DNA of 64,000 nucleotides from positions 9,068 to 73,067 of the forward strand of contig JBEKKX010000007.1 in the NCBI GenBank assembly GCA_050010515.1, given 5' to 3'. The DNA is from Candidatus Bathyarchaeia archaeon. Lineage in GTDB: Archaea > Thermoproteota > Bathyarchaeia > Bathyarchaeales > Bathycorpusculaceae. The notes beneath the pieces were generated by a model. The model was given only the letters and a program-made list of their open reading frames with translations. It ran no database searches and was not told the DNA's origin. Below are positions 2,737 through 41,547 of this stretch, in pieces (positions within the stretch are counted from its first letter, which is position 1; each line of letters begins with the position of its first letter). The translations under genes and the position numbers were made by a program.

Positions 2737-4338
2737 ATGACTGAAGAGATTATCGGGCGTGGCACATGGTACGACATGATGGCCAAGAAAGTAATCGACA
2801 GGGAGCGCCAGCTAGGCAGAAACATGGGTAAAATCAGAACTGAGATGGGTCTTGGCGCCTCTGGTTTTCCGCACATCGGCAGCTTAGGTGATGCTGCACG
2901 CTCGTATACTGTTACGCTTGCTTTGAAGGGTTTAGGTTTCGATTCTGAGTTGGTTGCTTACTGCGACGACAAGGATGGCTTACGGAAAGTTCCGGTTGGG
3001 TTATCAAAAGATTTGGAGAAGTATCTTGGTTACCCAGTGTCCAGTATTCCTGACCCGTTTGGTTGCCATGAAAGCTACGGTAAACACATGAGCTCGCTTC
3101 TGCTTGAATCCCTGGACAAGTGCGAGATAGAATACCGCTATTTTTCAGCTAAGGAAGTCTACGAGAAAGGTTTACTGTTAAACGAGATTAGAACCATTCT
3201 GTCCAATGCCAAGGCAGTAGGCGAAATTGTTAAAGAAGAAGTTGGTCAAGAACGCTACACTGAAGTCTTGCCTTTCTTCCCAGTCTGCCGCAACTGCGGG
3301 CGCATCTATACCACAAAAGCCTACAAGTTCGACCCAAAAACTGACAAGGTCCTCTACAAATGCGAAGGCTTAGAGATACGTGATAGACTCATCGAGGGCT
3401 GTGGCTATGAAGGCGAAGCAGACATAAGTAAAGGTGAGGGAAAATTAACTTGGAAAGGTGAATTCGCCGCCCGCTGGAAAGCGCTGGACATACGGTTTGA
3501 AGCTTACGGAAAAGACATCGCTGACTCAGTAAAAATCAACGACCGAATATGCCGCGAAGTCCTATGTTTTGAGCCGCCTTCACACGCAAAATACGAAATG
3601 TTCCTCGATAAAAGCGGAAAGAAAATATCCAAATCAGCTGGCAACGTTTTCACGCCGCAAGTGTGGTTCCGTTACGGTTCTCCTCAGTCGCTGCTTTTGC
3701 TGATGCTTAAACGGTTTGTTGGGACACGAAACTTGGACATGTCAGATATTCCACTGTACATGAATGAGCTTGATTTCCTCGAAGACGTGTATTTCGGCAA
3801 AAAACAAACCAGCGAAAAAGAAGCCACGAAGCTTAGGGGTTTGTTTGAGTACTGCTATGTCCTGAAGCCGCCAGCTAAGCCAAGCGTTCACGTGCCCTAT
3901 AATTTGATGGCGTTTCTGGTTAAAATGGCGCCTAAAGAATGCGTAAACGATTATGTGGCTGAGAAACTGCAAAGCTACGGTTACCTACAAAAGGGTCAAG
4001 CCTTAGATGCTAATTTGAAACAGCGTATTGAGTACACTTTGAATTGGATCAGAGATTTTGAAGAAATCAGAGAAACAGATGTCACTCTAACAAGCGAAGA
4101 GAAAAAAGCAATCAGTGAGTTAATCACAGAACTGGAAACTGAAGAAGAACCAGATAAAATTCAAAACGCCATCTTTAACGCTGCAAAAAACAACGGCATA
4201 CAGCCCAGCGGCTTCTTCAAAACGCTATACAAGATTTTGATGGGTGCACCGCAGGGTCCACGTTTAGGTCCATATGTACTTGCCATGGGCAAACAAAACG
4301 TCATAGCCGCTCTCAAAAGGGTCGTAAGCAAAAGTTAG
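2737..4338 (+). CDS. lysS: Lysine--tRNA ligase, class I
   Basis: GASGFPHIGS (HIGH-like), EAYGKD and KISKSAGN (KMSKS-like) motifs; GPRLG C-terminal motif. Confidence 0.95.
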   Translation: MTEEIIGRGTWYDMMAKKVIDRERQLGRNMGKIRTEMGLGASGFPHIGSLGDAARSYTVTLALKGLGFDSELVAYCDDKDGLRKVPVGLSKDLEKYLGYPVSSIPDPFGCHESYGKHMSSLLLESLDKCEIEYRYFSAKEVYEKGLLLNEIRTILSNAKAVGEIVKEEVGQERYTEVLPFFPVCRNCGRIYTTKAYKFDPKTDKVLYKCEGLEIRDRLIEGCGYEGEADISKGEGKLTWKGEFAARWKALDIRFEAYGKDIADSVKINDRICREVLCFEPPSHAKYEMFLDKSGKKISKSAGNVFTPQVWFRYGSPQSLLLLMLKRFVGTRNLDMSDIPLYMNELDFLEDVYFGKKQTSEKEATKLRGLFEYCYVLKPPAKPSVHVPYNLMAFLVKMAPKECVNDYVAEKLQSYGYLQKGQALDANLKQRIEYTLNWIRDFEEIRETDVTLTSEEKKAISELITELETEEEPDKIQNAIFNAAKNNGIQPSGFFKTLYKILMGAPQGPRLGPYVLAMGKQNVIAALKRVVSKS

Positions 4339-4791: not shown

Positions 4792-6423
4792 TTGAGTTAT
4801 CAAAAAACTCTACCAAACATAAAACCAAAAAAAGAAACGCCCAAAGTAAACGTTAAAGAAGATAAAACCCCAAATTATACTTCTGCATCTTGCGATTTAG
4901 CTTTAGATAAAGAACGGCTAAAAAATATTTTAGAAAATATTCCTTCGGCTGTGATGGTTATTGAAAAGCCTGAGGGCAAAGTAACCTACGCCAATAAAAG
5001 GGCTATTGAGCTTAATGGCATAAACCCGTGTGGGCTCGAATTAAAGAATCTTGCAGTAAAGATATACAATCTGGATGGTAAGATTTGCCCAACCGAAGAA
5101 CTGTATACATACAGAGCACTGTTTAAAGAAGAAACAATGCGTAACGCACCGCCGCAAATTATTGAGCACATTAATGGAAAACGTTTTATAGTAAACGTAA
5201 GTGCAAAACCGCTCTACGATAAAGAAGGCAAAGCCAATGCTGCCGTAACTATTTTTGACGACGCAACTGAACGCGTCAAAATTCAAGAGGCACTTAAAGA
5301 AAGCGAAGAGAGGTTAAAAATGGCGCAGAGGATTGCTCATGTAGGAAATTGGGAGTACTATGTTAAAGAAGATAGGGCAATTTGGTCTGAAGAGCTATTT
5401 CGCATATTTGGCTTAAAACCACAACGGTATGGCCCAAATACCACTTATTATGTCGCTCGAATTTATCCGCAAGACAGGGAAGCAATAAACAAAATAATGG
5501 AGCAAATGCTGTTTAAAGGTGTGATTTCTAAAGCAAGTTTCGATTACCGAATTATTAGAGAAGATGGCTCGGTTCGCACTATACATTCTGAACGGATGAT
5601 CAGAGAAGTTGATGATGATAAAAAGCCAAAAAGGCTAGTCGGGGTAGAACAGGACATAACTGAGCGCAAGCAAATAGAGCAAAAACTTGGAGAACATACC
5701 AAGAATTTAGAAAAGCTTGTTGAAGAAAGAACAAAACAACTGAAAGATGCTGAACGCTTAGCCACTATTGGACAAACCGCAGGTATGATTGGCCATGATA
5801 TTCGTAACCCACTGCAAGCTATTGTCGGAGAACTGTTTTTGATAAAACAAGATGTCGATAGTTCACCCGATAGCCAATTCAAAAGAAATACGCAAGAAAG
5901 TTTAGGTACTATACAAGAGCAAATAGATTACATAAACAAGATTGTTTCTGACTTGCAAGATTACGCAAGACCCCTCAAACCTGAACTGGTTGAAGTTGAC
6001 CTTCGCCGTGTCATTCCGCAACTGCTTTCAACAGTGAATGTACCAAACAATATTCACGCTTTTGCAGAATGCGATAAGAAATTATCAAAACTGAATTTAG
6101 ACTTAACTTTCCTAAAACGCATCCTTGTAAACCTTGTAACAAACGCTATTCAAGCCATGCCAAACGGGGGCAAACTAAAAATAAGAACTTTTGAGGAAGG
6201 TGATAATGTTTTCATAATCACTGCGGATACTGGCGTTGGAATTCCAGACGAAATAAAACCAAAAATCTTCCAGCCACTCATGACCACCAAATCTAAAGGG
6301 CAAGGCTTCGGATTAGCCGTTGTTAAACGCTTAGTTGAGGCACAGGGCGGCACAATAACTTTTGAAAGCAGAGTTGGCAAAGGAACAAAATTCAAAATAA
6401 CCTTCCCTAAACAAACAAAATAA
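4792..6423 (+). CDS. PAS/PAC sensor histidine kinase
   Basis: Two PAS domains; H-box GHDIRNPL; N-box NLVTNAIQAM; DTGVGI and GQGFGL G-boxes. Confidence 0.92.
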   Translation: MSYQKTLPNIKPKKETPKVNVKEDKTPNYTSASCDLALDKERLKNILENIPSAVMVIEKPEGKVTYANKRAIELNGINPCGLELKNLAVKIYNLDGKICPTEELYTYRALFKEETMRNAPPQIIEHINGKRFIVNVSAKPLYDKEGKANAAVTIFDDATERVKIQEALKESEERLKMAQRIAHVGNWEYYVKEDRAIWSEELFRIFGLKPQRYGPNTTYYVARIYPQDREAINKIMEQMLFKGVISKASFDYRIIREDGSVRTIHSERMIREVDDDKKPKRLVGVEQDITERKQIEQKLGEHTKNLEKLVEERTKQLKDAERLATIGQTAGMIGHDIRNPLQAIVGELFLIKQDVDSSPDSQFKRNTQESLGTIQEQIDYINKIVSDLQDYARPLKPELVEVDLRRVIPQLLSTVNVPNNIHAFAECDKKLSKLNLDLTFLKRILVNLVTNAIQAMPNGGKLKIRTFEEGDNVFIITADTGVGIPDEIKPKIFQPLMTTKSKGQGFGLAVVKRLVEAQGGTITFESRVGKGTKFKITFPKQTK

Positions 6424-6508
6424 CACACGCCATCTTAAACCACTATTTTTAAGTTTAAGCAAATTATTTACTATTCTGCCCTCATTTTCTGGGTACAAAA
6501 CAAGCGTT

Positions 6509-6534
6509 GGGCTCGTCGTCTAGTACGGATTATG
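6509..6534 (+). repeat. 26-bp exact copy of the 5' end of tRNA-Arg(GCG), probable att remnant
   Basis: gggctcgtcgtctagtacggattatg is identical to 8181-8206. Confidence 0.85.
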
Positions 6535-6649
6535 CCATCGCTGGCGATATCGCCATACGCTAATTTCTCTGCGGCTTTTCTCTCTTTTTTTGCCTTCTTA
6601 ATTTTAAGGGGTTCTCTGATGACCAGCGCGCTTTGATGATTTTGGATAG

Positions 6650-7939
6650 CTAGCCTTGTAGAATTTTCCCGTTTATTCTCTTCTTTTTTGCGACGATTAC
6701 AGCAAATGCAGCACATGCCATAATGGCAACTAATGAAAAATCGAGCGCTTGGTTAGGAAACTCTGGAATTGTTGGGGAAGGCACGGGTGGGGATGGTTGA
6801 GGAACCGTAATTGCACCAAAAGCGTATACGCTGTCGTCGTTTGAGCCGACGTAGACCACGCCGTTGGCAACCGCAGGAGAAGAATCTACAAGATTAACGG
6901 TCCCGTAAGTCCATATTGTGGTGCCTGTTGTAGCGTTCAAAGCGTAAACATTGTCGTCGTCTGAGCCAACGTAGACTATGCCGTTGGCGACCGCGGGAGA
7001 AGACTCTACCTGGTTACTTGTGGGGTAGCTCCATATTTTGCTGCCTGTTGCGGCGTTTAAAGCGTACACGTTGTAGTCTTCTGAGCCAATGTAGACCACA
7101 CCATTGGCAACGGCGGGACAAGAATCCACATAATTGCCTGTGCCGAAGTTCCATATTTTGCTGCCTGTTGCGGCATTCAAAGCGTATACGCTGTTGTCGT
7201 CTGAGCCAACGTAGACTATGCCGTTGACAACTGCAGGAGAGGAATCCACTTCGTCGCCGGTTTCATAACTCCATATTTTGCTGCCTGTTGCGGCATTCAA
7301 AGCGTAAACATAGTCGTCTTCTGAACCAACGTAAACCACACCATTAACAACCGCGGGAGACGAGACCACGGAACTACCTGTGCTGTAGCTCCATATTTTT
7401 GTGCCTGTTGCGGCGTTTAAAGCGTAAACCTTGTTGTCGTCTGAGCCGATGTAGACTATGCTGTTGACAACTGCAGGGGAAGACTCCACCTTGTCGCCGG
7501 TTGTGTAACTCCATATTTTGGTACCGGTAGTAGCGTTTAAAGCGTAAACCTTGTGGTCCTCTGAGCCAACGTAGACTATGCCGTTGGCGACTGCAGAGGA
7601 AGAATCCACAGAACCGCCGGTCTTGTAACTCCAGATGTATACACCGGTTGCAGCGTTCAAAGCGTAAACATAGTGGTCATCTGAGCCAACATAAACCACC
7701 CCGTTTATAACAGCAGGAGAAGAATAATCTATAGAATTGCCGGTCGGGTAACTCCATAGGAGTTGGTTTGTAAGTGGCGCTGTTGAAGTGGAGTAGCCTG
7801 TGTGCGTTAGGTCATGACGGAATGTGGGCCACCAGTCCACCGTAGATTGTTGCGCCTTCACTTTTGGCGCGAAAACTGAAAACATCGATAAACACAAAAG
7901 CCCTATAAGGATCACAATTAGTATTCTCTTCATTTCCAT
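6650..7939 (-). CDS. Secreted PQQ-like beta-propeller repeat protein with PEF-CTERM-type sorting signal
   Basis: Signal peptide; about eight 40-aa repeats SSPAVxNGxVYVGSxDxxVYALNAxTGxxIW; C-terminal PTIPEFP, TM helix and basic tail. Confidence 0.9.
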   Translation of the reverse strand: MEMKRILIVILIGLLCLSMFSVFAPKVKAQQSTVDWWPTFRHDLTHTGYSTSTAPLTNQLLWSYPTGNSIDYSSPAVINGVVYVGSDDHYVYALNAATGVYIWSYKTGGSVDSSSAVANGIVYVGSEDHKVYALNATTGTKIWSYTTGDKVESSPAVVNSIVYIGSDDNKVYALNAATGTKIWSYSTGSSVVSSPAVVNGVVYVGSEDDYVYALNAATGSKIWSYETGDEVDSSPAVVNGIVYVGSDDNSVYALNAATGSKIWNFGTGNYVDSCPAVANGVVYIGSEDYNVYALNAATGSKIWSYPTSNQVESSPAVANGIVYVGSDDDNVYALNATTGTTIWTYGTVNLVDSSPAVANGVVYVGSNDDSVYAFGAITVPQPSPPVPSPTIPEFPNQALDFSLVAIMACAAFAVIVAKKKRINGKILQG

Positions 7940-8180: not shown

Positions 8181-8256
8181 GGGCTCGTCGTCTAGTACGG
8201 ATTATGACACCGGCCTGCGGAGCCGGAGGTCCTGGGTTCAAATCCCAGCGGGCCCG
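8181..8256 (+). tRNA. tRNA-Arg(GCG), no encoded CCA at this copy
   Basis: Cloverleaf: GGGCTCG/CGGGCCC acceptor stem, CCGGC-CTGCGGA-GCCGG anticodon arm, CTGGG-TTCAAAT-CCCAG T arm. Confidence 0.95.
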
Positions 8257-8482
8257 TTATTCTTTTGCTTAAATCAGCTTGATTTGCGCTCGGATTGCCA
8301 TTACTAAAATCTGTAACGGCGTTACAATTTTCCGTAACGCTTAGCCCAGCGCCCTGAAGCAACGTCGCCTCGTCGCGCAGTTGTGCGCTTTTAGCCTTTA
8401 TACGGCAACGTAGCACACGGCCGTAAGCTTTGTCAAATTTTTCAGGGGACTTTATGAATTCAAGTTCTACTTTGCTTAACAT
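8192..8482 (-). CDS. Integrase N-terminal fragment (intN)
   Basis: ORF runs through the att site as GPLGFEPRTSGSAG, the same peptide that opens intC. Confidence 0.8.
   Translation of the reverse strand: MLSKVELEFIKSPEKFDKAYGRVLRCRIKAKSAQLRDEATLLQGAGLSVTENCNAVTDFSNGNPSANQADLSKRITGPLGFEPRTSGSAGRCHNPY
8213..8256 (+). repeat. att site, tRNA-proximal (44 bp)
   Basis: gcctgcggagccggaggtcctgggttcaaatcccagcgggcccg is identical to 13789-13832. Confidence 0.95.
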
Positions 8483-8610
8483 GCTTTCGCCTTAAAGTCT
8501 TAAAGGTTGGCTCACACTTAAAGCTTACCGTATAAATTATCAGATGAATTATAGCATAAAATTTATAACTGCCTAAGCCTTTAAGCATTTAAGCGCTATA
8601 AAGCATTGTC

Positions 8611-8736
8611 CGGTGAATATTCACCGTGCAAAAGCATGGCCCAGTTGCATGATTCCACGGTGATTGAACACCGTACAAACAGACATACGTGCAACGGGCT
8701 TTAAATCAAAGCCCTTCCACGGTGATCGAACACCGT
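8611..8736. repeat. Palindrome cluster A: 3 x (A)CGGTG-N6-CACCGT
   Basis: Sites 8611-8627 (spacer AATATT), 8657-8674 (ATTGAA), 8719-8736 (ATCGAA). Confidence 0.85.
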
Positions 8737-8783
8737 GTAGGACTGGAGCCGGGCTCAAAAGCGCGTAATGGAGTAGACTAAGA

Positions 8784-8945
8784 ATGCGAGAAGCAATAGG
8801 CAAGTTAACGTGTGGCCCTAAGAGTCGTACGGGCATACTGTACATTCCATCCGACTTGATGGTTGACAGTGCGTTTCCGTTTCAAGCGCCTGCAAAACTC
8901 AAGGTGATAATTGAGGGTGATAAGCTGATTATCGAAAAAGCTTAG
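8784..8945 (+). CDS. AbrB/MazE/SpoVT-type small DNA-binding protein (53 aa, absent from ORF track)
   Basis: MREAIGKLTCGPKSRTGILYIPSDLMVDSAFPFQAPAKLKVIIEGDKLIIEKA fits the swapped-hairpin pattern; ggag upstream. Confidence 0.7.
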   Translation: MREAIGKLTCGPKSRTGILYIPSDLMVDSAFPFQAPAKLKVIIEGDKLIIEKA

Positions 8946-9232
8946 GCTGAGCGAGAGTTTAGGAGCTCTAAAAAGTGTGATAATGCTCACCACTAAGTTA
9001 ATATAAGCGCTAAACATGCAAATTCTTAGGGCTAAAAAAAAATTAACTGAAAGGTGTATGAGTTTTGATGCATTGTAAGTATTTGAACAGAATATTCCCT
9101 CGATGTTGGCTATCCGATTTTAACGCCTTAGAGGAGGGAAAGCAGTAATGCTTGGTCTGAACCTGACTCCGGAACAAAAGTTCTGCAAGCCAGCGGAAAG
9201 CAAACGCTTGAACGGGGAGAAGGTGCCATAAC

Positions 9233-10042
9233 ATGGCTAACAAATGGCACATGAGGATAATCAGTCCTAAGCCGAATGGACTTAAAGGCATAGAGCTCGC
9301 AACGGATGACGAGCTTAAAGAGATTAAACCATATTTGGCAAAATTGAACATTCCATATGATGGCAACCAGATTTTCTATAACCTAAATCCAAAACCCGAA
9401 GAAAGCAAAGTTCTTGAGGACAAGTTTCCAGAGTTTAAAGCTGAAGTTCAAGAATACGGCTTTCTATCGCCTGCTGTGATGATTATTGAAGCATACGTTA
9501 ACTTTTTTATGACCCGCTACGAACGCGAGGACCCAAAACTGAGAGACGACGCTGAGTGGCAGAAAAAACTTAAGCAGCAAAGGGATGGATTAAAGGCAGA
9601 AAAAGCGTTTGATTTAATCTTGCAGGGTATGGCTTTGCCCTTTAATTATCTAGAGCCTATAACTGATTGGCGCAAAGGTCATGGAGCACCGTTTCCTCAA
9701 ACAAGCGATTTTTATGTGCCAGCACTTGGAAAACTTGAGGTTAAAAGTGTTACCAGATGGAGTGGTGAAAATAGAGTCAACGTTAACAAGGCAGAGTGGT
9801 TTGATGCGGCGCCAAATTACTTGGTTGCTCTCACTCACATAGGTGGAAAATTTGTTATGCTTTGCGGAGCGATGCGTTTTTCTGAAGTTAATAGCTATGC
9901 TGGCGGACCTTTTGACATTGCCACGAGCAAGCCTTTTCTAAGCATACCCCTTGAAGACCTTACAATTACAGCTATGAGATTGTACCAAGTTTTGTTTGAC
10001 GTGGAGATTAGACTTGACAAGTTGGATAAAGTCCAAATTTGA
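9233..10042 (+). CDS. Putative PD-(D/E)XK nuclease-fold protein
   Basis: GLKAEKAF helix followed by SDFYVPALGKLEVKS (D-x9-E-x-K). Confidence 0.6.
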   Translation: MANKWHMRIISPKPNGLKGIELATDDELKEIKPYLAKLNIPYDGNQIFYNLNPKPEESKVLEDKFPEFKAEVQEYGFLSPAVMIIEAYVNFFMTRYEREDPKLRDDAEWQKKLKQQRDGLKAEKAFDLILQGMALPFNYLEPITDWRKGHGAPFPQTSDFYVPALGKLEVKSVTRWSGENRVNVNKAEWFDAAPNYLVALTHIGGKFVMLCGAMRFSEVNSYAGGPFDIATSKPFLSIPLEDLTITAMRLYQVLFDVEIRLDKLDKVQI

Positions 10043-10130
10043 ATTTGCCCAATAGCTGAATTAGCGTTAAAGTTAAGCATGCCTTTAGAAGAACAAGGTT
10101 TTAAGCGTACATGCGTCAGCAACTATTAGT

Positions 10131-10746
10131 CTATCCAGTAGAATCGGGGTACACGTTGAATATAACATTGCATGGCGGAAATTGGTTATATTCATCAATT
10201 GGATAATAGCGCCAAGGTAGGTCCAAGGGTAGGACTATTGTGCCGTTTGCTGATAACACAGCAGTTGAGTGAGCATAACTTGGGTCTACTTCAAAGTAAT
10301 AATCTCCATACGATAAAGGTACCGTATAATTTGAAGATGTAATTTGTGTTAAAGTCGTCTCATATGAGTCATTATACATTGTTAAAGTTACGGCCGCATT
10401 ACCCACACCGGTGTTATTTGCTGCGTACAGTAAGTGACCGTAGATAACATACTCAGCAATATAATATGAACCATAAGCTTCCATTGTTATATTTTCTGCA
10501 GTAATAGGTGTAACGTTAACAGTGCCAAATACAACTTGATTGGAAAATGGAAGTGTGGGTGTTAAGTACGGTGTTGGCGTGGACAAGAGTGTTGGCGTGG
10601 GAGTGGGCTTTATAACATCTACATTATTGACATTTTGAGCATGCGAGTTAAATGTTAAGCCCGATTACACCTGCAGAGCACACAATCGCAATTAATGCGG
10701 TGATGCATACGTACATGAGGCGACTGCGCTTTGGGCTATTCAACAC
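10131..10746 (-). pseudogene. Secreted/surface protein gene with a frameshift near 10661
   Basis: GTG at 10746 opens a signal peptide (MLNSPKRSRLMYVCITALIAIVCSAGVIG) that stops; the PT-rich linker and beta-rich body continue in the adjacent frame as ORF 10131..10586. Confidence 0.65.
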
Positions 10747-10930
10747 GCTACACCTTTACTTGCTTTAACAGCTAAGTTAGCGCTTCCTGCTTAAAGCATT
10801 TGGGTTCGAAGCGCTTTTGCACATTAGGCTTTAAAATAGGCTCAGACTGCAAATCCCTCGCTTGTTGTCTGCGAGTACGCCATAAGATACAGCATATAGC
10901 AAATTAGCTTAAAGGTGCATACGCATTTCC

Positions 10931-11026
10931 ACGGTGTTCAATCACCGTACAAAAGCATAGCTTCCAATGGGTAAAGCGCTACAGATGCACGGTGAATATT
11001 CACCGTAAGGTCATGGAGTACACCGT
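10931..11026. repeat. Palindrome cluster B: 2 x ACGGTG-N6-CACCGT plus a half-site
   Basis: 10931-10948 (TTCAAT), 10989-11006 (AATATT), half-site caccgt at 11021-11026. Confidence 0.85.
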
Positions 11027-11221
11027 ACAAAGGGGCAAAGCGCTGCAGAACCAAGCGATGGTCGAATTGGCTGTTAACCTTGAGCCCAGTTGGCTTACTC
11101 AATTATTCGACAGAATTTTCGGTATGGAATTTTACTAAGAAAGCATGTAAGCGACAAAACCCTATTAAGTCCAAACATATTATATTGTAAAACTATCATA
11201 CTTGCCTACAAGGCGAGACTG

Positions 11222-11851
11222 TTGATAGACGCAAAAATTAAAGAACTTCTGGGTTTTGATATCGATACTCCGGACAAAAAAGTTTTAGCTGCTTGGAAGG
11301 CTGCTTCATCGCGGGTATGCAAACCTTGTTGGGAACTCAAATATTGCCCATACGGACCCTTTGTTGAGGAGTCGCCATTGCTACCTCCATTACGCGAGGA
11401 AATGGTTAAAGAGATTAAGTATCTAAAAAATTGTCTCAAAACAGGTAAAATGGCTGATGGAAAGCCCTTAGATGTAAAGCGCAAAAAAATCTTCCAAGAC
11501 GAGATAGATGGATTCAAACCTGAGGATTACCCAGAAAAAATTCCACAAGAAATTTTAGAATCAAGCTGCAACGTCTTTGGTCATATATGTCCTGTAGTAT
11601 TTGTTGCTGAGGGATTCACTGAAACTTCTGAAAATCGTAGAACTGGAAGATACATACCTTTTAAGGTAAAAATGCGTGTAGCTCGAAGGGATAATTATGT
11701 TTGCCAAGAATGTAAACACCAGCTTTTAGATGACGAATTAGAATTTGACCATATAATACCTGTTTCAAAGGGAGGCAGTTCAGAGGAACACAATATTCGA
11801 TTGACCTGCTATGACTGTAACCGAGACAAATTGGACAGAGTAGACCTCTAA
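11222..11851 (+). CDS. HNH endonuclease with Cys-rich N-terminal domain
   Basis: RRDNYVCQEC...LEFDHIIPVSKGGSSEEHNIRLTCYDCN; N-terminal CKPCWELKYCPYG; start uncertain (frame open from 11090). Confidence 0.9.
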   Translation: MIDAKIKELLGFDIDTPDKKVLAAWKAASSRVCKPCWELKYCPYGPFVEESPLLPPLREEMVKEIKYLKNCLKTGKMADGKPLDVKRKKIFQDEIDGFKPEDYPEKIPQEILESSCNVFGHICPVVFVAEGFTETSENRRTGRYIPFKVKMRVARRDNYVCQECKHQLLDDELEFDHIIPVSKGGSSEEHNIRLTCYDCNRDKLDRVDL

Positions 11852-11934
11852 CCGAACTTAATCACTTAGAAACACTCTTCTCAATCAATCTTGAGTTAAT
11901 ATCTTAAAGCCTCTAAAGGCATAGTTTGCTCTAC

Positions 11935-12146
11935 ACGGCGTTTGAAGGCCGTAACGGGCACGTCAAGTTTAAGCACCGTGTCATAATACATTAAAGGGCG
12001 AAACGTGCGTCTGCAGTTTGTCTGGATAACGGTGGTACGCTTCCTCACGGTGTTCAATCGCCGTAAAAGCAGCTTTATTTGGGCTCTGATTGGCATTAAC
12101 CTTCAAGCAGACGGCGCTATGCTTCTGCGCGGTGTTCGATCACCGT
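11935..12146. repeat. Palindrome cluster C: 3 slightly degenerate ACGGTG-N6-CACCGT copies
   Basis: 11935-11952 acggcg-tttgaa-ggccgt; 12047-12064 acggtg-ttcaat-cgccgt; 12129-12146 gcggtg-ttcgat-caccgt. Confidence 0.8.
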
Positions 12147-12265
12147 GGAATTGTGCAAGGTAAGCTATTAGCTTAGGCTTGCTTTGAACGTGACCTGACC
12201 AAATAATCGGCATACTTGCCATAAAACTTGTCCGCCTGTCAGCTGATCACTGCACTAAGATTATC

Positions 12266-12318
12266 TGTGTACACACAGTTTACACAAAAAACTTATATGT
12301 GTAAACACAGTACACACA
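12266..12318 (+). promoter_or_regulatory. TATA box flanked by repeated operator-like sites upstream of the RHH gene
   Basis: tgtgtacacacagtttacaca - aaaaacttata - tgtgtaaacacagtacacaca; gtttacaca and tgtgtaaac form an inverted pair around the TATA box. Confidence 0.65.
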
Positions 12319-12339
12319 TATTCAGAGAAGCGATTGCTA

Positions 12340-12792
12340 ATGCCAAAAAACATTACACTCTCAATGCCCGATGACGTGGCTGCGGATATGGAAGCCATGC
12401 CTGAAGTAAATTGGTCAGCTGTAGCGAAGGGAAGCATTAAGACGTACATTGAAGCTCGGAAAAAACCCGATATCACACCATTAATTGAAAACCTTCTGCG
12501 ACAGAAAACCGAAGAATACGTTAACGGAAGAAAAAAGGCAGACGAGATCGCTGAAAAGTCAGGATATCGATTCGTAGACATAATCGTACGCAAATGCTTT
12601 ACAAAATCTTCAGAGATCCACGACATGGAAGAACAAAACTACCCACCATGGGAAATACCAGATCTTGATCAAGAATTTGAAAAAATACTACTCGACCTCA
12701 AGGTAATCACAACGGAAGCTTCAGGAGAGTTCTTAAAAGGCATTAGGGAGCGATTAATCGAGATATATCACGTGCTCAACCAGCAAGAATAA
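12340..12792 (+). CDS. Ribbon-helix-helix (CopG/antitoxin-like) regulator
   Basis: MPKNITLSMPDDVAADMEAMPEVNWSAVAK matches the archaeal RHH pattern (NITLS.P...E.NWS). Confidence 0.7.
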   Translation: MPKNITLSMPDDVAADMEAMPEVNWSAVAKGSIKTYIEARKKPDITPLIENLLRQKTEEYVNGRKKADEIAEKSGYRFVDIIVRKCFTKSSEIHDMEEQNYPPWEIPDLDQEFEKILLDLKVITTEASGEFLKGIRERLIEIYHVLNQQE

Positions 12793-12793
12793 T

Positions 12794-12873
12794 GGATGGA
12801 TAGCTTAGCACGGACTTAAAGCACCCGCCCGCTAAGCGGAAGACCGTGGGTTCAAATCCCACCCCATCCACCA
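12794..12873 (+). tRNA. Atypical tRNA-like gene: anticodon GCT, short variable loop, encoded CCA
   Basis: GGATGGA/CCCATCC acceptor stem, GCTT/AAGC D stem, CCCGC-CCGCTAA-GCGGA anticodon arm, GTGGG-TTCAAAT-CCCAC T arm, ACCA end. Confidence 0.75.
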
Positions 12874-12897
12874 ATTTAATACTATTAGTCTGTTTAA

Positions 12898-13836
12898 TTA
12901 ATAAGTTTTTGATCCAGTCTCTGGAACTGGAGGCTTATTTGTAGTGGTATCCGATTGCATTTTCAGCCTTAAGCTTGTTAAGTACTCAGTATATTTACCG
13001 TAGAACTTATCCGCTTGTCGCCTTAGCACCATATAATGCTTTGCACCTATGCGCTTTGGCACCCTGCCTTCAATAAAGTCTGCAACGCTTTCTGGAACCT
13101 CAAGCTCAACCATCTTGTCAAAGGCGAACTTGCGCAGATATTTGGGTGCAATCGCCTTATGCTTCCTGCAGCGATGTGCCGCTGTTCCGGGTCTAAACGC
13201 TTTTTCTGAGACTTGGCTCAACAGCTTAAAGGTGTACTCGGTAAAGTATCCGTAGAACGCTTGCTTGTTGCCCCTAAAAGCTCCAATCTCAACGCGGTAA
13301 AATCCATTAACCGTCGCAACCTTGTCAGCCTCAAATTCGCTTATCACCTTAAGCGCCTCGACTAAACGCAACCCGGAGTCAACCAGAAGGTTATACAGAG
13401 CCCAATACTTTAGGGTCGCATTTTTGATTGAGCTTAGGGAGCGTACAATCTCTGGCTCGTCTGGAACTTTAAGGTCTATTCCGGTGCAATTAGCTTTAGG
13501 CAGCGATTTTCTGAGAATGTTGACTACCCAGTCATCATATCCGAGCGCTTCCAAATAATTAAAGAGAACTCGGAAGCCAAGCCAAAGGTTACGCCTACCT
13601 TTCTTAACCTTACTGAAGATACCAATAACATCTTGGGGATAATTTATCACCTTAAAGTGCCAGTCAAGATAGCGAAGAATATCAGTGATGTAGGTTGAGC
13701 TATAGCTTTGAGAATCCAAATATTGCCTAAAGCCCTGTCGCAAATCAGCCCAAATCAAGCTTATTTTTAAATTCTGAGCGCTTTTGACGCCTGCGGAGCC
13801 GGAGGTCCTGGGTTCAAATCCCAGCGGGCCCGCCAT
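12898..13836 (-). CDS. SSV1-type tyrosine integrase, C-terminal catalytic fragment (intC)
   Basis: DSGLRLVE, PKYLRKF, ADFIEGR and AKHY give the R-K-R-R-Y catalytic set typical of SSV1-like integrases; starts inside the att site. Confidence 0.92.
   Translation of the reverse strand: MAGPLGFEPRTSGSAGVKSAQNLKISLIWADLRQGFRQYLDSQSYSSTYITDILRYLDWHFKVINYPQDVIGIFSKVKKGRRNLWLGFRVLFNYLEALGYDDWVVNILRKSLPKANCTGIDLKVPDEPEIVRSLSSIKNATLKYWALYNLLVDSGLRLVEALKVISEFEADKVATVNGFYRVEIGAFRGNKQAFYGYFTEYTFKLLSQVSEKAFRPGTAAHRCRKHKAIAPKYLRKFAFDKMVELEVPESVADFIEGRVPKRIGAKHYMVLRRQADKFYGKYTEYLTSLRLKMQSDTTTNKPPVPETGSKTY
13789..13832 (+). repeat. att site, distal (44-bp tRNA-Arg 3' half, followed by CCA)
   Basis: Identical to 8213-8256; cca follows at 13833-13835. 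Confidence 0.95.
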
Positions 13837-17218: not shown

Positions 17219-18508
17219 TTAGCGTTTTTTGTCAATTTTTTCTTTGTTGCCCATGTATTTTTTCAAAGCACTTGGTATGTTAATTGTGCCGTCTGCTTGC
17301 TGATTGTTTTCTAGTATGGCAACTATAGTTCTGCCTGAAGCTACGGCTGTCGAGTTTAATGTATGAACAAATCCTTTCGGCGGTGCGCCCTCCTTTTCCC
17401 TGTAACGAATGCCTAAACGCCTTCCTTGATAATCAGTACAGTTGCTGCACGAAACAACTTCGCGGTACCCATTTTGCGCTGGCATCCAAGCTTCAATATC
17501 GTATTTTTTAGCTGCTACGGTTCCAATGTCGCCTGTGCAAACGTTGACAACACGGTATGGCAATTCAAGCTTTTGAAGCAGTTCCTCAGCGTTCTGCAGC
17601 AGTTCCTCATGTAGCTTAGTTGAGTCTTCTGGCTTGCAAAAGATGAATTGTTCGATTTTGTTGAATTGGTGGGTTCGGAATATTCCTCTTGTGTCTTTGC
17701 CGTGTGCGCCCGCCTCTTTTCTAAAGCATGTGCTTATTCCAGCAAGTTTTAGCGGCATGTCCTGTTCTTTTAACACTTCGTTCATGTACATTGCAGCCAT
17801 AGGATGCTCAGAAGTGGCGATTAAGTATAGGTCTTCGTTTTCCACTTTATAGAGAACATCAGCAAAGTCTCCAAGTGCCGTTACGCCTTCATATGCTTCA
17901 CGCTTCATCAAATACGGCGGAATGATCGGCGTGTAGCCCTTTTTTGTTAGTTCCTCTATAGCGAAGCTCATCAGCGCCATGTCTAATTGTGCGACTTGGT
18001 TTTTTAGGTAGAAGAATCTTGCGCCAGATATTTTTCCAGCTCTTTCCATGTCAATCTGGTCTAATTCTAAGGCTAAGTCGATATGATTTTTTATTGGAAA
18101 ATTAAATTTTGGGATTGTTCCCCAAGTTTTTACTTGCACATTGTCGTTAGAGTCTTTTCCAAGTGGAACACTTTCATCCAGCAGGTTCGGAAGCTGCATG
18201 AGGTAGTCATGGGTTTTCTGTTCTTGTTGGGTTACTTGCTTTTCGATGTGGGTTATTTTTTCATCGATATCCTGTGCCCTCTCGACTTCGCTGTCGGCTT
18301 CCTTGCCAGCTTTTTTTAGTTTGGCGATTTCTATGGTTACCTGCTTTCGGTTGTGACGCAGCTCGTTTAGTTTAGTGAGGTTAAATCGCCATTCCTTGTC
18401 AACAGCAATTAAATCCTCTAGCATTTGGGTGGTTTCAGGGTTGCCACGCTTTTCCAAATTATTTTTTACTAGCTCGGGGTTTTCACGGATAAGCTTGATA
18501 TCTAACAT
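17219..18508 (-). CDS. serS: Serine--tRNA ligase
   Basis: MLDIKLIRENP start; LIATSEHP, FRKEAGAHGKDTRGIFRTHQFNK and VHTLNST motifs. Confidence 0.97.
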   Translation of the reverse strand: MLDIKLIRENPELVKNNLEKRGNPETTQMLEDLIAVDKEWRFNLTKLNELRHNRKQVTIEIAKLKKAGKEADSEVERAQDIDEKITHIEKQVTQQEQKTHDYLMQLPNLLDESVPLGKDSNDNVQVKTWGTIPKFNFPIKNHIDLALELDQIDMERAGKISGARFFYLKNQVAQLDMALMSFAIEELTKKGYTPIIPPYLMKREAYEGVTALGDFADVLYKVENEDLYLIATSEHPMAAMYMNEVLKEQDMPLKLAGISTCFRKEAGAHGKDTRGIFRTHQFNKIEQFIFCKPEDSTKLHEELLQNAEELLQKLELPYRVVNVCTGDIGTVAAKKYDIEAWMPAQNGYREVVSCSNCTDYQGRRLGIRYREKEGAPPKGFVHTLNSTAVASGRTIVAILENNQQADGTINIPSALKKYMGNKEKIDKKR

Positions 18509-18685
18509 TGTTCTCACACGGAGTAATTCTCTAACTAACAAAATTAGCTATTTAACTTTGCGATACGGTAGCGGGTGCCTAAGTGCTAGTAGAATACGTA
18601 AAGATATAAAATTTCCGCGAGAATTTATTTAAAAAATAAAAGAAGGTTTGAAGTGGTTTCTTGGTTTTGTTGGTTGTGTCCAGTT

Positions 18686-40689: not shown

Positions 40690-41547
40690 TCATTGGCTGA
40701 TTTTTTTAGAGCTTGTACCGTGTATATATCCTAAGAGCCAACATAATCTGATGATAGGATAGCTTAGCATCAATCTGGAATCATGCATTCTTAGAGCCAT
40801 CTTAAAACTTGAAATTGGAGATTTAGCAAATCTAAGAAGGAGAGAACTTAGGTTTTCGTTTTCATATAAACTGAGGCTTTTGAGACGACTGTAAATTTGA
40901 GGTAAACTGGAGCCGTAAAAGTAATAATGTTTAAACTCATTCAAAAGGCCGCCATAATGTAAATGTAAACTTTTAACATTATAATCCACCAACCATTTAT
41001 ATCCCTTTGAATCAAGCAAATGGAAAACAAAGGTATCGATACCAGCAAAATTTACCTTTGGAAATCCTCCAATAGACCTTAAAGCCTCTGTATTCCAAAT
41101 CGTATTATCTAATGTTTTTCCATAACCACCGTAAAAATCAATATCTTTCCTAGTTAACTGATAAGGTTCAACACTAAAGCAAAAATTATTTCTAGGAAGG
41201 AAACGCAGTCCACAAGCTGCACCAACACCTTCTTTATTCAAAATTAAAGCAGAAACTTTATTCCACCAATTACTGGACAAAAATACGTCTTGTTCAAAAC
41301 TGCAAAAATAACTAGTTTGGATATGTTTAAGCGCTGTGTTCGCGGCGTCACTTATCCCTTTGCCTTCATTCTTTATAACATTCCAACCATATTTTCTTGC
41401 AACAGTAACTGTATTATCTTTACTACCATCATCAACAATCAATCTTTGATTAACAATATCTTTAGGGATAATCTCATTAATGCGGCTAAGGACGAGTGGT
41501 AAAGTTTTTTCACCGTTTAAAGTCCACATTACCAAATCAACTTTCAA
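40690..41547 (-). CDS. Glycosyltransferase family 2 (AT-rich gene)
   Basis: IVDDGSKDNT, GISDAAN.AL and GGF motifs; EQD in place of DxD. Confidence 0.85.
   Translation of the reverse strand: MKVDLVMWTLNGEKTLPLVLSRINEIIPKDIVNQRLIVDDGSKDNTVTVARKYGWNVIKNEGKGISDAANTALKHIQTSYFCSFEQDVFLSSNWWNKVSALILNKEGVGAACGLRFLPRNNFCFSVEPYQLTRKDIDFYGGYGKTLDNTIWNTEALRSIGGFPKVNFAGIDTFVFHLLDSKGYKWLVDYNVKSLHLHYGGLLNEFKHYYFYGSSLPQIYSRLKSLSLYENENLSSLLLRFAKSPISSFKMALRMHDSRLMLSYPIIRLCWLLGYIHGTSSKKISQ

Follow-up and report, generated by a model that had tools for sequence, protein, structure and literature searches.

A mobile-element tRNA of Bathyarchaeia that joins an arginine-type body to a serine anticodon

The DNA analysed here is a stretch of 64,000 nucleotides (the window) from a genome of Candidatus Bathyarchaeia archaeon that comprises 2.38 Mb in 66 contigs. 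It contains an integrated mobile element of about 5.6 kb with a split SSV-type integrase, inserted in the host gene for tRNA-Arg(GCG), and this element encodes a tRNA of its own whose anticodon, GCU, is that of a serine tRNA. By its body and its relatives, the element tRNA evidently is a member of a Bathyarchaeia clade that descended from tRNA-Arg(YCU) and is carried on mobile elements. The members of this clade have the anticodon ACU or GCU, and we refer to them as RCU tRNAs. We favour, tentatively and short of calling it probable, the reading that the host arginyl-tRNA synthetase (ArgRS) charges the element tRNA, which would pair with the serine codons AGC and AGU (AGY) and would act as an attenuated Ser-to-Arg miscoder.

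The gene was verified with two programs. Infernal matched the Rfam model RF00005 to 12794-12870 over its entire length (model positions 1-71 of 71) with 53.4 bits, the gathering score being 29, and with E-values of 1.2e-8 over the window and 4.8e-11 in a local search. The neighbouring host tRNA-Arg(GCG) at 8181-8256 scored 59.2 bits, and these two are the only tRNAs in the window by both ARAGORN and Rfam. In the Rfam alignment, the element tRNA has the standard geometry of a 7-bp acceptor stem and a 5-bp T stem, a variable loop of 5 nt (AGACC) with no long arm, the discriminator A73 at 12870, and the anticodon loop CCGCUAA, in which C33 is at 12830 and GCU at 12831-12833. Exactly two pairs are marked as non-standard, A12800:C12863 (7:66) and C12824:A12840 (27:43). 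U8, A14, G15, G18, G19, A21, the pair G15:C48, the T loop UUCAAAU and the pair G53:C61 are all standard, and the nucleotides of the tertiary interactions are retained without exception, as is the whole anticodon loop. Sequence and alignment together bear out every sequence feature that an initial annotation had listed for this tRNA, namely the GCT anticodon, the 5-nt variable loop, the discriminator A, C33, the mismatches A7:C66 and C27:A43, and a start 1 nt past the upstream stop codon (TAA at 12790-12792, tRNA from 12794). ARAGORN agreed on a tRNA-Ser(gct), but in a register shifted to 12798-12873; this shift leaves a poor acceptor stem, and the Rfam register is the correct one. The encoded CCA of the element tRNA recurs in the family, 10 of the 19 members whose flanking sequence was inspected having one. 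Co-transcription with the upstream gene is plausible. A weak candidate for a promoter, the ATATAT box within the upstream open reading frame (ORF), has a position that is not conserved among relatives.

Despite its anticodon, the element tRNA is not a serine tRNA. It was initially argued that seryl-tRNA synthetase should not recognise it, and we concur, since the long variable arm is missing and position 73 is A, whereas G73 is the discriminator of archaeal and bacterial tRNA-Ser. On contig C5 the host encodes a class-II tRNA-Ser(GCU), 85 nt long and with a long arm; the element tRNA shares the GCU anticodon with it and differs in the arm, the body and A73. The arginine set of the host is likewise complete, with GCG, TCG and CCT and the intron-containing CCG and TCT. 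With a full arginine set and a class-II tRNA-Ser(GCU) already present, the element tRNA is an extra. The label tRNA-Ser that annotation pipelines give to RCU genes is almost certainly wrong.

Relatives were sought by BLAST with 12334-12900 against 401 genomes of the order, and only the tRNA part matched elsewhere. The six best foreign matches called by ARAGORN (L002, L003, L004, L006, L007 and L018) are 82-88% identical, and all are short-variable-loop tRNAs with the anticodon ACU or GCU; the matches that follow these six RCU genes are canonical tRNA-Arg genes. Among the matches listed, at least 10 genomes of the genus, out of 120, have RCU genes. Pattern scans added further members in metagenome-assembled genomes (MAGs) of Bathyarchaeia. 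They also picked up a viral contig (L035) with exactly the tRNA of L002, and genes of a similar kind in one Woesearchaeota MAG and one Methanomicrobiales MAG. The broad scans also returned many false positives, bacterial tRNA-Ser genes with CYRCTAA in the long arm, and no prevalence was derived from them. A 13-mer of the element tRNA at window position 40757 was set aside as a chance match. About 45 relatives were gathered in all. Seventeen family members were aligned and used to build a covariance model, and counts out of 17 below refer to this alignment.

An independent view of the anticodon came from a metagenome scan whose pattern covered positions 4-32 only, that is, the 5' half, so that the anticodon and the 3' half were not selected on. 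It yielded 31 loci with 29 distinct sequences, and every one of the 31 has a purine at position 34 followed by CU. Positions 33-36 read UACU at 27 loci, CGCU at three and AACU at one. Two of the CGCU loci are this element, and the third is a relative with different acceptor and T stems; in the AACU copy the 5' half is kept and the sequence from position 40 onwards is unrelated. Of the 31 loci, 28 are recognised as tRNAs by ARAGORN, and a few copies have T-loop changes. Four relatives (L005, L009, L011 and L017) are decayed by private, uncompensated damage, with anticodon-arm deletions, a truncated acceptor or broken T stems, the 3' acceptor strand being missing in L017; all four are still ACU. 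The element tRNA has no such damage. We regard the RCU tRNAs as an old and diversifying family of genes, with gains and losses, and not as one rotting copy.

The initial annotation had held that the tRNA could be charged with an amino acid other than serine, and three comparisons indicate that this would be arginine. In the first, the host class-I tRNAs of up to 80 nt were scored with a home-made profile built from the 17 family members, in which the anticodon loop was masked so that the shared loop had no influence. The ranking was Arg-CCT (60.7), Arg-TCG (54.5), Arg-TCT (54.4), Arg-CCG (49.2), Met (43.4) and Arg-GCG (42.0), so that arginine tRNAs take the top four places and all five arginine isoacceptors are in the top six. 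The family covariance model gives 86.5 bits to canonical tRNA-Arg(UCU) and 82-88 to tRNA-Arg(CCU), as high as the 81-88.6 bits of the family members, and about 72-74 bits to tRNA-Arg(UCG) and tRNA-Ile(GAU). The third comparison concerns the identity nucleotides. According to the available part of PMC9976931, the determinants for arginine are A20, C35, U/G36 and A/G73, and the accessible portion of a preprint (10.64898/2026.04.02.715157) treats A20 as a marker of arginine identity in archaeal tRNAs. In the family, A20, C35 and U36 are invariant (17/17) and position 73 is A or G in all members; A20 is fixed in a D loop that is otherwise variable in both length and sequence. The element tRNA has A20, C35 and U36 (C12832 and U12833), A73 and the arginine-like body. 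Among the listed host tRNAs, GGA at positions 18-20 is found in the arginine tRNAs and in one Met tRNA.

Placed beside the canonical archaeal tRNA-Arg(UCU/CCU), RCU tRNAs agree in the body, the D loop with A20, C32, C35, U36, A37, A38, the T arm and A/G73. They differ in the purine at position 34, which directs them to AGY instead of AGR, in U13 instead of C13, and in C27:A43 instead of C27:G43, and further in C33, which roughly half of the members have, in their variable acceptor stems, in their location on mobile elements and in their sporadic distribution. The anticodon of the element tRNA does not read an arginine codon; since GCU pairs with the serine codons AGC and AGU, we do not file it as a normal tRNA-Arg.

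What sets the element tRNA apart from a standard tRNA is common in its family. Position 34 is A or G in 17/17, and A20, C32, C35, U36, A37 and A38 are invariant. C33 is present in eight of the 17 members and U33 in nine. The pair 27:43 is open in 10/17 and A:U or U:A in 5/17, and 7:66 is A:C in five members and A:U, G:C or G:U in twelve, seven of them A7:U66. In the 28 intact metagenome copies, which were chosen without reference to position 43, A43 faces C27 every time. The check for conserved copies and covariation that had been proposed at the outset gave both. Across the alignment 91.9% of the stem cells are paired, compared with 71.6% after shuffling (0/500 shuffles reach 91.9%); 16 of 21 pairs have changes on both sides, and structures slid by 1-3 columns as a control pair in at most 52.6% of cells. 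As part of this signal could stem from different ancestors, covariation was recounted in a close subclade of 11 sequences, where the pairs 2:71, 3:70 and 50:64 still show double changes, with 14 cells compared with 5.7 after shuffling (0/500). C33, C27:A43 and A7:C66 are, on this evidence, characters of the clade and not private decay, and the fold and the entire anticodon loop of the RCU tRNAs appear to be under purifying selection. Decay, which the initial annotation had allowed for, does not hold as the principal reading, with three deviations common to relatives and stems that covary. Nor do the homologs drift at random from a standard tRNA: they form a conserved clade with compensatory stem changes.

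One further feature of the sequence is an alternative helix. With U13, bases 10-16 (GCUUAGC, 12803-12809) are the exact complement of bases 34-40 (GCUAAGC, 12831-12837), and the minimum free energy fold of the single sequence uses this helix and not the cloverleaf (-30.5 kcal/mol, z -4.73). Across the family 88.2% of its cells are paired, a marginal value that 22 of 500 shuffles reach. Its only covarying pair is 16:34 (UA 7, CG 4, UG 1, unpaired 5; n=17), and the 30 full-length metagenome sequences combine U16 with A34 or C16 with G34. U13 is invariant (17/17) though its D-stem partner is often unpaired, and the canonical arginine tRNAs of the genus have C13. The complementarity could reflect a switch that hides the anticodon, a protein-binding DNA palindrome or shared ancestry.

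The mechanism that we favour would run as follows. Position 34 turned purine in the whole clade, giving GCU here and ACU in most relatives, and the anticodon would then pair with AGC and AGU. The transcript would undergo ordinary tRNA processing, receive arginine from the host ArgRS and be used to insert it at AGY codons, the element tRNA combining arginine identity elements with a serine anticodon. This mechanism is the most likely one, given that the arginine identity nucleotides are all kept and that ArgRS is independent of position 34. C33, the anticodon stem of only four base pairs and A7:C66 probably weaken or alter decoding, and what would result is Ser-to-Arg miscoding at a low level or under certain conditions, possibly with a broader AGN reading, and not a codon reassignment. 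Transcription, arginylation, use by the ribosome and a benefit to the element are steps that we infer from sequence. An outright reassignment of AGY to arginine in the element was rejected: full recoding is excluded by the element's own integrase, whose C-terminal part, int(C), has AGC at an invariant serine (residue 250, Ser in 9/9 homologs). Its AGC at residue 46 aligns with S6/N2/T1 and its AGT at residue 75 with S2/A6/T1 in the homologs, and its conserved arginine columns use standard arginine codons. A more general claim, that an arginine-accepting tRNA of archaeal mobile elements and viruses reads AGC/AGU or the whole AGN box with no special synthetase, strikes us as possible but doubtful; in it, reading of the AGN box would be helped by the 4-bp anticodon stem.

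Several observations weigh against miscoding. It would hit the element itself, at the integrase AGC for the invariant serine and at AGC and AGT in the two columns of mainly Ser, Ala or Thr, and a stably integrated element should suffer from the toxicity of an efficient Arg-tRNA(GCU). AGY codons number 24.2 per 1000 in the element, 29.2 in a provirus that carries an RCU tRNA (L021), 26.0 in other modules and 25.1 in the host. Self-protection by AGY avoidance was therefore rejected, carriers having 24.2-29.2 and the host 25.1, and with AGY not avoided no selective benefit is evident. C33 in half of the clade suggests a relaxed constraint on ordinary A-site decoding, and the four clearly decayed relatives mark the gene as dispensable. 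The 24 sequencing runs listed for the tRNA stretch include no RNA run, and the element is unchanged and at chromosome-like depth in four peat, wetland or soil runs. Moreover, the specificity of ArgRS at position 34 is carried over to archaea from other systems.

The tRNA was initially described as element-encoded, and the boundaries of the element confirm this, the gene lying between perfect direct repeats of 44 bp and between the halves of the split integrase. The coordinates are collected in the table below.

Features of the integrated element and its tRNA gene (window coordinates)
Feature	Position	Strand	Basis or remark
attL, left attachment site (att), 44-bp repeat, 3' portion of the host tRNA-Arg(GCG) as reconstituted at 8181-8256	8213..8256	+	100% direct repeat
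int(N), N-terminal integrase part, reading into attL and tRNA-Arg	8192..8482	-	C-terminal residues GPLGFEPRTSGSAG
orf53, small, AbrB-like	8784..8945	+	ORF list
orf269	9233..10042	+	ORF list
orf151	10131..10586	-	ORF list
Cys-rich HNH protein	11090..11851	+	PF01844, E 9.8e-12
Palindrome CACGGTG-N6-CACCGT, two of seven copies, operator-like, upstream of the 152-aa ORF and the tRNA	12036..12150	.	repeat families D1, D4; inverted repeats
152-aa ORF, possible ribbon-helix-helix N-terminus, helical C-terminal domain	12334..12792	+	stop 1 nt before tRNA
ATATAT, candidate archaeal TATA box, about 26-31 nt 5' of tRNA, within the upstream ORF	12763..12768	+	sequence only, weak
tRNA-Arg-like cloverleaf, anticodon GCU, positions 1-73	12794..12870	+	RF00005, ARAGORN, covarying family
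A7 facing C66, mismatch at the base of the acceptor stem	12800..12863	+	Rfam alignment
A20, D loop, main arginine identity nucleotide	12814	+	invariant in 17/17 family members
Anticodon stem, C27 facing A43, four Watson-Crick pairs only	12824..12840	+	Rfam alignment
C33 and anticodon G34-C35-U36	12830..12833	+	Rfam alignment
Genomically encoded CCA	12871..12873	+	read from sequence
int(C), catalytic C-terminal part of the SSV-type tyrosine integrase, convergent with the tRNA	12898..13836	-	PF16795, E 1.2e-31
attR, displaced 3' portion of tRNA-Arg(GCG) with the original CCA after it	13789..13832	+	44-bp direct repeat

The N-terminus of int(C), GPLGFEPRTSGSAG, is encoded by the attachment site and identical to the C-terminal residues of int(N), and this shared peptide identifies an integrase of the SSV type, which on integration disrupts the gene that encodes it; the gene is split at a tRNA gene, with direct repeats at both ends. 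At attL (8254-8259) the reconstituted tRNA-Arg(GCG) is followed by TTA, with no encoded CCA, and at attR (13830-13835) the displaced 3' fragment retains the original one, so that after integration the host tRNA needs CCA addition. Homologs of two element proteins are found elsewhere, that of orf269 in the closest related element (L212) and that of orf53 in L216, and the HNH protein gave nothing beyond generic HNH matches. Seven intergenic copies of the palindrome (8611-8627, 8658-8674, ~8719-8737, 10932-10948, 10990-11006, ~12046-12064 and ~12129-12146) look like putative operators or iterons for a small DNA-binding protein of the element. A separate inverted repeat of 29 nt lies just 5' of the 152-aa ORF, at 12263-12321. 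Beyond the element, the host gene for a bacterial-type seryl-tRNA synthetase (17219-18541, minus strand) is 4.3 kb away, probably by coincidence, and beside the integration site a gene at 6650-7939 (minus strand) encodes a 429-aa secreted protein with PQQ/beta-propeller-like repeats (VYALNAATG...), within which the DNA has internal repeats of 120 nt at 7504-7725.

The gene directly upstream of the tRNA had been labelled a ribbon-helix-helix gene. That label stays plausible and goes no further, as the protein has no Pfam and no Foldseek match. The 152-aa product belongs to no Pfam, PADLOC or PHROGs family, and its AlphaFold model, which predicts an unstructured N-terminus, helices at 13-20 and 27-43 and then a helical bundle, has no Foldseek match in the PDB at E<=0.001. 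Of 301 genomes of the family, 19 (counting G000) have a homolog of this ORF, and a tRNA is missing from the 1.5 kb around each of the 11 homolog loci examined; a fixed partnership between the tRNA and the upstream gene was rejected on this ground. The RCU tRNA is also absent from all 12 loci with related integrases (43-79% identity), the closest of which (79%) has a homolog of orf269 directly after int(C), and a core gene of the integrase-element family was rejected likewise. With relatives of both the integrase and the upstream gene lacking it, the tRNA is accessory cargo, free-standing and moving between mobile contexts.

Window positions 12100-13100 were found in 20 DNA runs of 19 studies of peat, wetland or soil. 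In two of the four runs that were compared, contigs span 8231-13818 or 8227-13818 with zero differences and with a depth equal to that of the flanks. No joint indicative of excision or of an empty site was present in the contigs of the four runs, which is uninformative on activity.

The other RCU tRNAs lie in varied surroundings of a mobile or defence kind, among them a provirus, islands with IS and restriction genes, and a dCTP-deaminase island. A tblastn search with six element proteins against loci L002-L027 found no homolog near other RCU copies, and no protein neighbour is common to all RCU tRNAs, the upstream ORFs forming at least three unrelated groups. At 11 of the 14 loci examined, the tRNA starts 1-86 nt after an ORF on the same strand, and three ORF families recur, with products of 237 aa, 215 aa and about 450 aa. 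L021 is a tailed provirus with terminase and portal genes, and the same tRNA is found on an IMG/VR contig. At L022, the tRNA follows a 215-aa ORF, itself after a 307-aa dCTPase identified by PADLOC (dCTP-deaminase defence, E 4.8e-55; 6352-7275); the 215-aa ORF shares 37.5% identity with the C-terminus of a 608-aa ORF, the one located before the provirus tRNA of L021. At L025, L026, L080, L081 and L161, the tRNA is between an ORF of 223-244 aa and an IS6-like transposase gene that starts 113-127 nt past it, and at L025 and L026 it is also beside a methylase-Mrr fusion gene. At L023, L068 and L190, it follows a two-gene unit with a protein of ~450 aa (L023 6574-7926; L068 2089-3522, minus strand; L190 143-1489) that has a TPTFAPR motif and no Pfam match. 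This protein might be a DpdA- or TGT-like enzyme, the nearest Pfam-bearing atlas cluster being TGT with a score of 0.75, which is a weak lead.

Further features were observed at individual loci. At L066, two identical RCU tRNAs (1991-2065 and 2953-3027), identical also in 9 nt on the 5' and 5 nt on the 3' side, stand 962 nt apart and flank a single 263-aa ORF with weak Csa3/winged-helix matches. Directly 5' of the tRNA, within the 60 nt before it, L007, L018, L058, L080 and L121 have a hairpin whose stems differ by locus with complementarity kept (GTTAGGGAAC...GTTTCCCTAAC, GTTAGGATAAC...GTTATCCTAAC); it encloses CCTGCGC at four of the five loci and is absent from this window. A box, TCTTAARRGTTTGYGAYG, follows the tRNA by 25-35 nt at L002, L003, L004, L006, L068 and L190, with a second box, GGTAACTTAACTTAACA, further downstream at L003, L004 and L190. 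The loci with these boxes have differing upstream genes, and the boxes could be ends of mobile units or shared regulatory sites. At L024, two tRNA 3' fragments consisting of T arm and acceptor (~3610-3630 and ~4170-4200) lie 0.6-1.2 kb before the RCU tRNA, one of them resembling the 3' end of tRNA-Ala; as candidate att scars, they suggest an integration hot spot. Outside the archaea, eight MAGs of Desulfobacterota or "delta proteobacterium" (L054, L112, L117, L145, L146, L151, L153 and L156) have a conserved class-I tRNA, GGGGCCGTAGTTCA..., with the anticodon ACU or GCU, U33 and GGA at 18-20, and the combination of an arginine body with a serine anticodon may thus exist in bacteria too.

Four other explanations were weighed against miscoding. 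The tRNA may not decode at all and, made and perhaps charged, act off the ribosome as a mimic of tRNA-Arg. Its target could be a protein with recognition of tRNA-Arg(YCU), for example a tRNA nuclease of a defence or toxin system, for which it would be a decoy, a sponge or an antidote, or it could be a partner of the variable upstream protein; owing to purine 34 and C33 it would be poor as a substrate or as a decoder, with the rest of the recognition surface kept. Such a role would suit the mobile and defence contexts (the dCTPase two genes off, the insertion sequence with methylase-Mrr, the tailed provirus), the frequent position just behind a same-strand ORF of one of three recurring families, and the lack of AGY avoidance, and C33 in 8/17 members and a 4-bp anticodon stem are contrary to the constraints on ordinary elongator tRNAs. 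Virus tRNAs that neutralise tRNA-cleaving defences are known, as the available text of PMC11464382 describes. Still, we consider this explanation unlikely. No protein partner is present at all loci, the upstream proteins are unrelated, homologs of the upstream gene occur without the tRNA at 11 loci, and no tRNA nuclease was identified, the HNH protein having generic matches only. The known anti-defence tRNAs keep their anticodon, whereas here it is the wobble base, often read by nucleases, that changed, and the invariance of A20 points to ArgRS and not to a nuclease. Alternatively, the gene could be kept mainly as DNA, at which integrases or insertion sequences with tRNA-Arg-like target genes attach or land, the change of the anticodon being incidental. 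The metagenome copy joined to unrelated DNA from position 40, the missing 3' acceptor strand of L017, the identical pair around a single ORF at L066, the IS6-like transposase genes close downstream at five loci, the conserved 3' boxes at six loci and the tRNA 3' fragments near the L024 copy would all fit. Any tRNA gene draws such events, however, and the element's own att is a different gene, tRNA-Arg(GCG). No partial RCU repeat (13-mers) was found within 12.8-16 kb around six other copies, and compensatory stems, invariant A20, C32, C35, U36, A37 and A38 and a purine 34 in 29 distinct sequences would be left unexplained, which makes a recombination site improbable.

That the gene is a neutral passenger, a captured tRNA-Arg copy that lost decoding by a mutation at position 34 and decays without function, is about as improbable in our view. 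The three deviations from a standard tRNA, the four decayed relatives, the three of 31 metagenome copies that are not called as tRNAs and the few T-loop changes would be expected of it, as would the patchy distribution in the genus and the absence from the 12 loci of the closest integrase relatives. On the other hand, the same deviations recur over a diversified clade, A43 is unchanged in 28/28 intact copies though one transition would "repair" the pair, double substitutions have accumulated in stems within the clade, the tertiary nucleotides and the entire anticodon loop are retained, and the RF00005 score of the element tRNA is close to that of the host tRNA-Arg. C-to-U editing, also considered initially, would restore U33, U27:A43 and A7:U66 and so produce a standard tRNA. 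The one point in its favour is that other members have U at all three sites (U33 in nine, A7:U66 in seven, and A:U or U:A at 27:43 in five of the 17). Compared with canonical tRNA-Arg (G7:C66, C27:G43), though, the bases that changed are the purines G7 and G43 and not cytosines. No deaminase gene was detected on the element, and the genome's only match to PF00383 (cytidine deaminase fold) is a 161-aa dCMP-deaminase-like protein with no extra domains. The conflict between arginine body and serine anticodon would persist even after editing. We consider this explanation barely credible.

The favoured reading, arginylation and weak miscoding at AGY, can be compared with known tRNAs of mixed identity. 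The initial annotation had called the tRNA allo-tRNA-like. Allo-tRNAs are Ser- or Leu-like, with an 8/4 or 9/3 acceptor/T geometry, a long variable arm and assorted anticodons. They resemble the element tRNA in the mismatch between anticodon and body and in their discovery in metagenomes, but the comparison fails on structure, the element tRNA being a standard 7/5 cloverleaf with a short variable loop. A closer parallel is offered by tRNAProX and tRNAProA (PMC11415595, in the part available), which likewise combine the identity of one amino acid with the anticodon of another, a base other than U at position 33, a purine (A) at 34 and a patchy distribution; tRNAProX genes have A33 or G33 in place of U33, and A34. 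These tRNAs are bacterial, have proline identity and are encoded together with a dedicated isoform of prolyl-tRNA synthetase, whereas the RCU tRNA is archaeal, has arginine identity and mobile carriers and is accompanied by no synthetase gene. Miscoding has been demonstrated for tRNAProX/tRNAProA, and we infer it for the RCU tRNA. An open top pair of the anticodon stem loosens wobble reading in a UGA-reading tRNA-Trp(CCA) whose stem has four base pairs, according to the available part of PMC13092985, and the same pair is open, and conserved so, in RCU tRNAs; isoacceptor and domain of life differ.

Among tRNAs of viruses and mobile elements, those that escape host defences, such as the tRNA-Lys of T5 in relation to PARIS, share with the RCU tRNAs the carriage and the changes in the anticodon loop. 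In the account given by the available text of PMC11464382, the T5 type keeps its anticodon and replaces the cleaved host tRNA, which the RCU tRNA cannot do for the AGR reader. The carrier itself follows the concept of the SSV-type "suicidal" integrase, as outlined in the accessible part of PMC7253208, in which attP lies inside int and integration into a tRNA gene splits it into int(N) and int(C); the carrier has attP within its integrase gene, which was split on integration. A tRNA cargo is not part of this type, and 0/12 loci with related integrases carry an RCU tRNA.

Dual-identity tRNAs and virus-borne tRNAs are already known. What is new is the combination of arginine identity, a serine anticodon, independence from a dedicated synthetase and carriage on archaeal mobile elements. 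Our search of the literature found no description of arginine-type tRNAs with ACU or GCU anticodons in archaea, their viruses or mobile elements; the portion of PMC10848311 that was available makes no mention of them, and the archaeal reassignment described in the available text of the preprint 10.64898/2026.04.02.715157 is CGG-to-Trp only.

Transfer RNAs with a conflict between identity and anticodon supply the material from which changes of the genetic code and deliberate mistranslation arise. To our knowledge, few natural examples exist, all of them bacterial or eukaryotic. If the RCU tRNAs do insert arginine at AGY codons, they would be the first natural family of miscoding tRNAs in archaea and the first on mobile elements, and since ArgRS does not need the wobble base, no partner enzyme would have to co-evolve. 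They could then serve as a conditional weapon or switch, for instance as an effector of abortive infection or addiction, or as a scrambler of the proteins of hosts or competitors, and mobile elements would be able to tamper with the meaning of sense codons. If they do not decode, they would represent a new kind of tRNA mimic in the conflict between viruses and hosts, in a major lineage of uncultured archaea.

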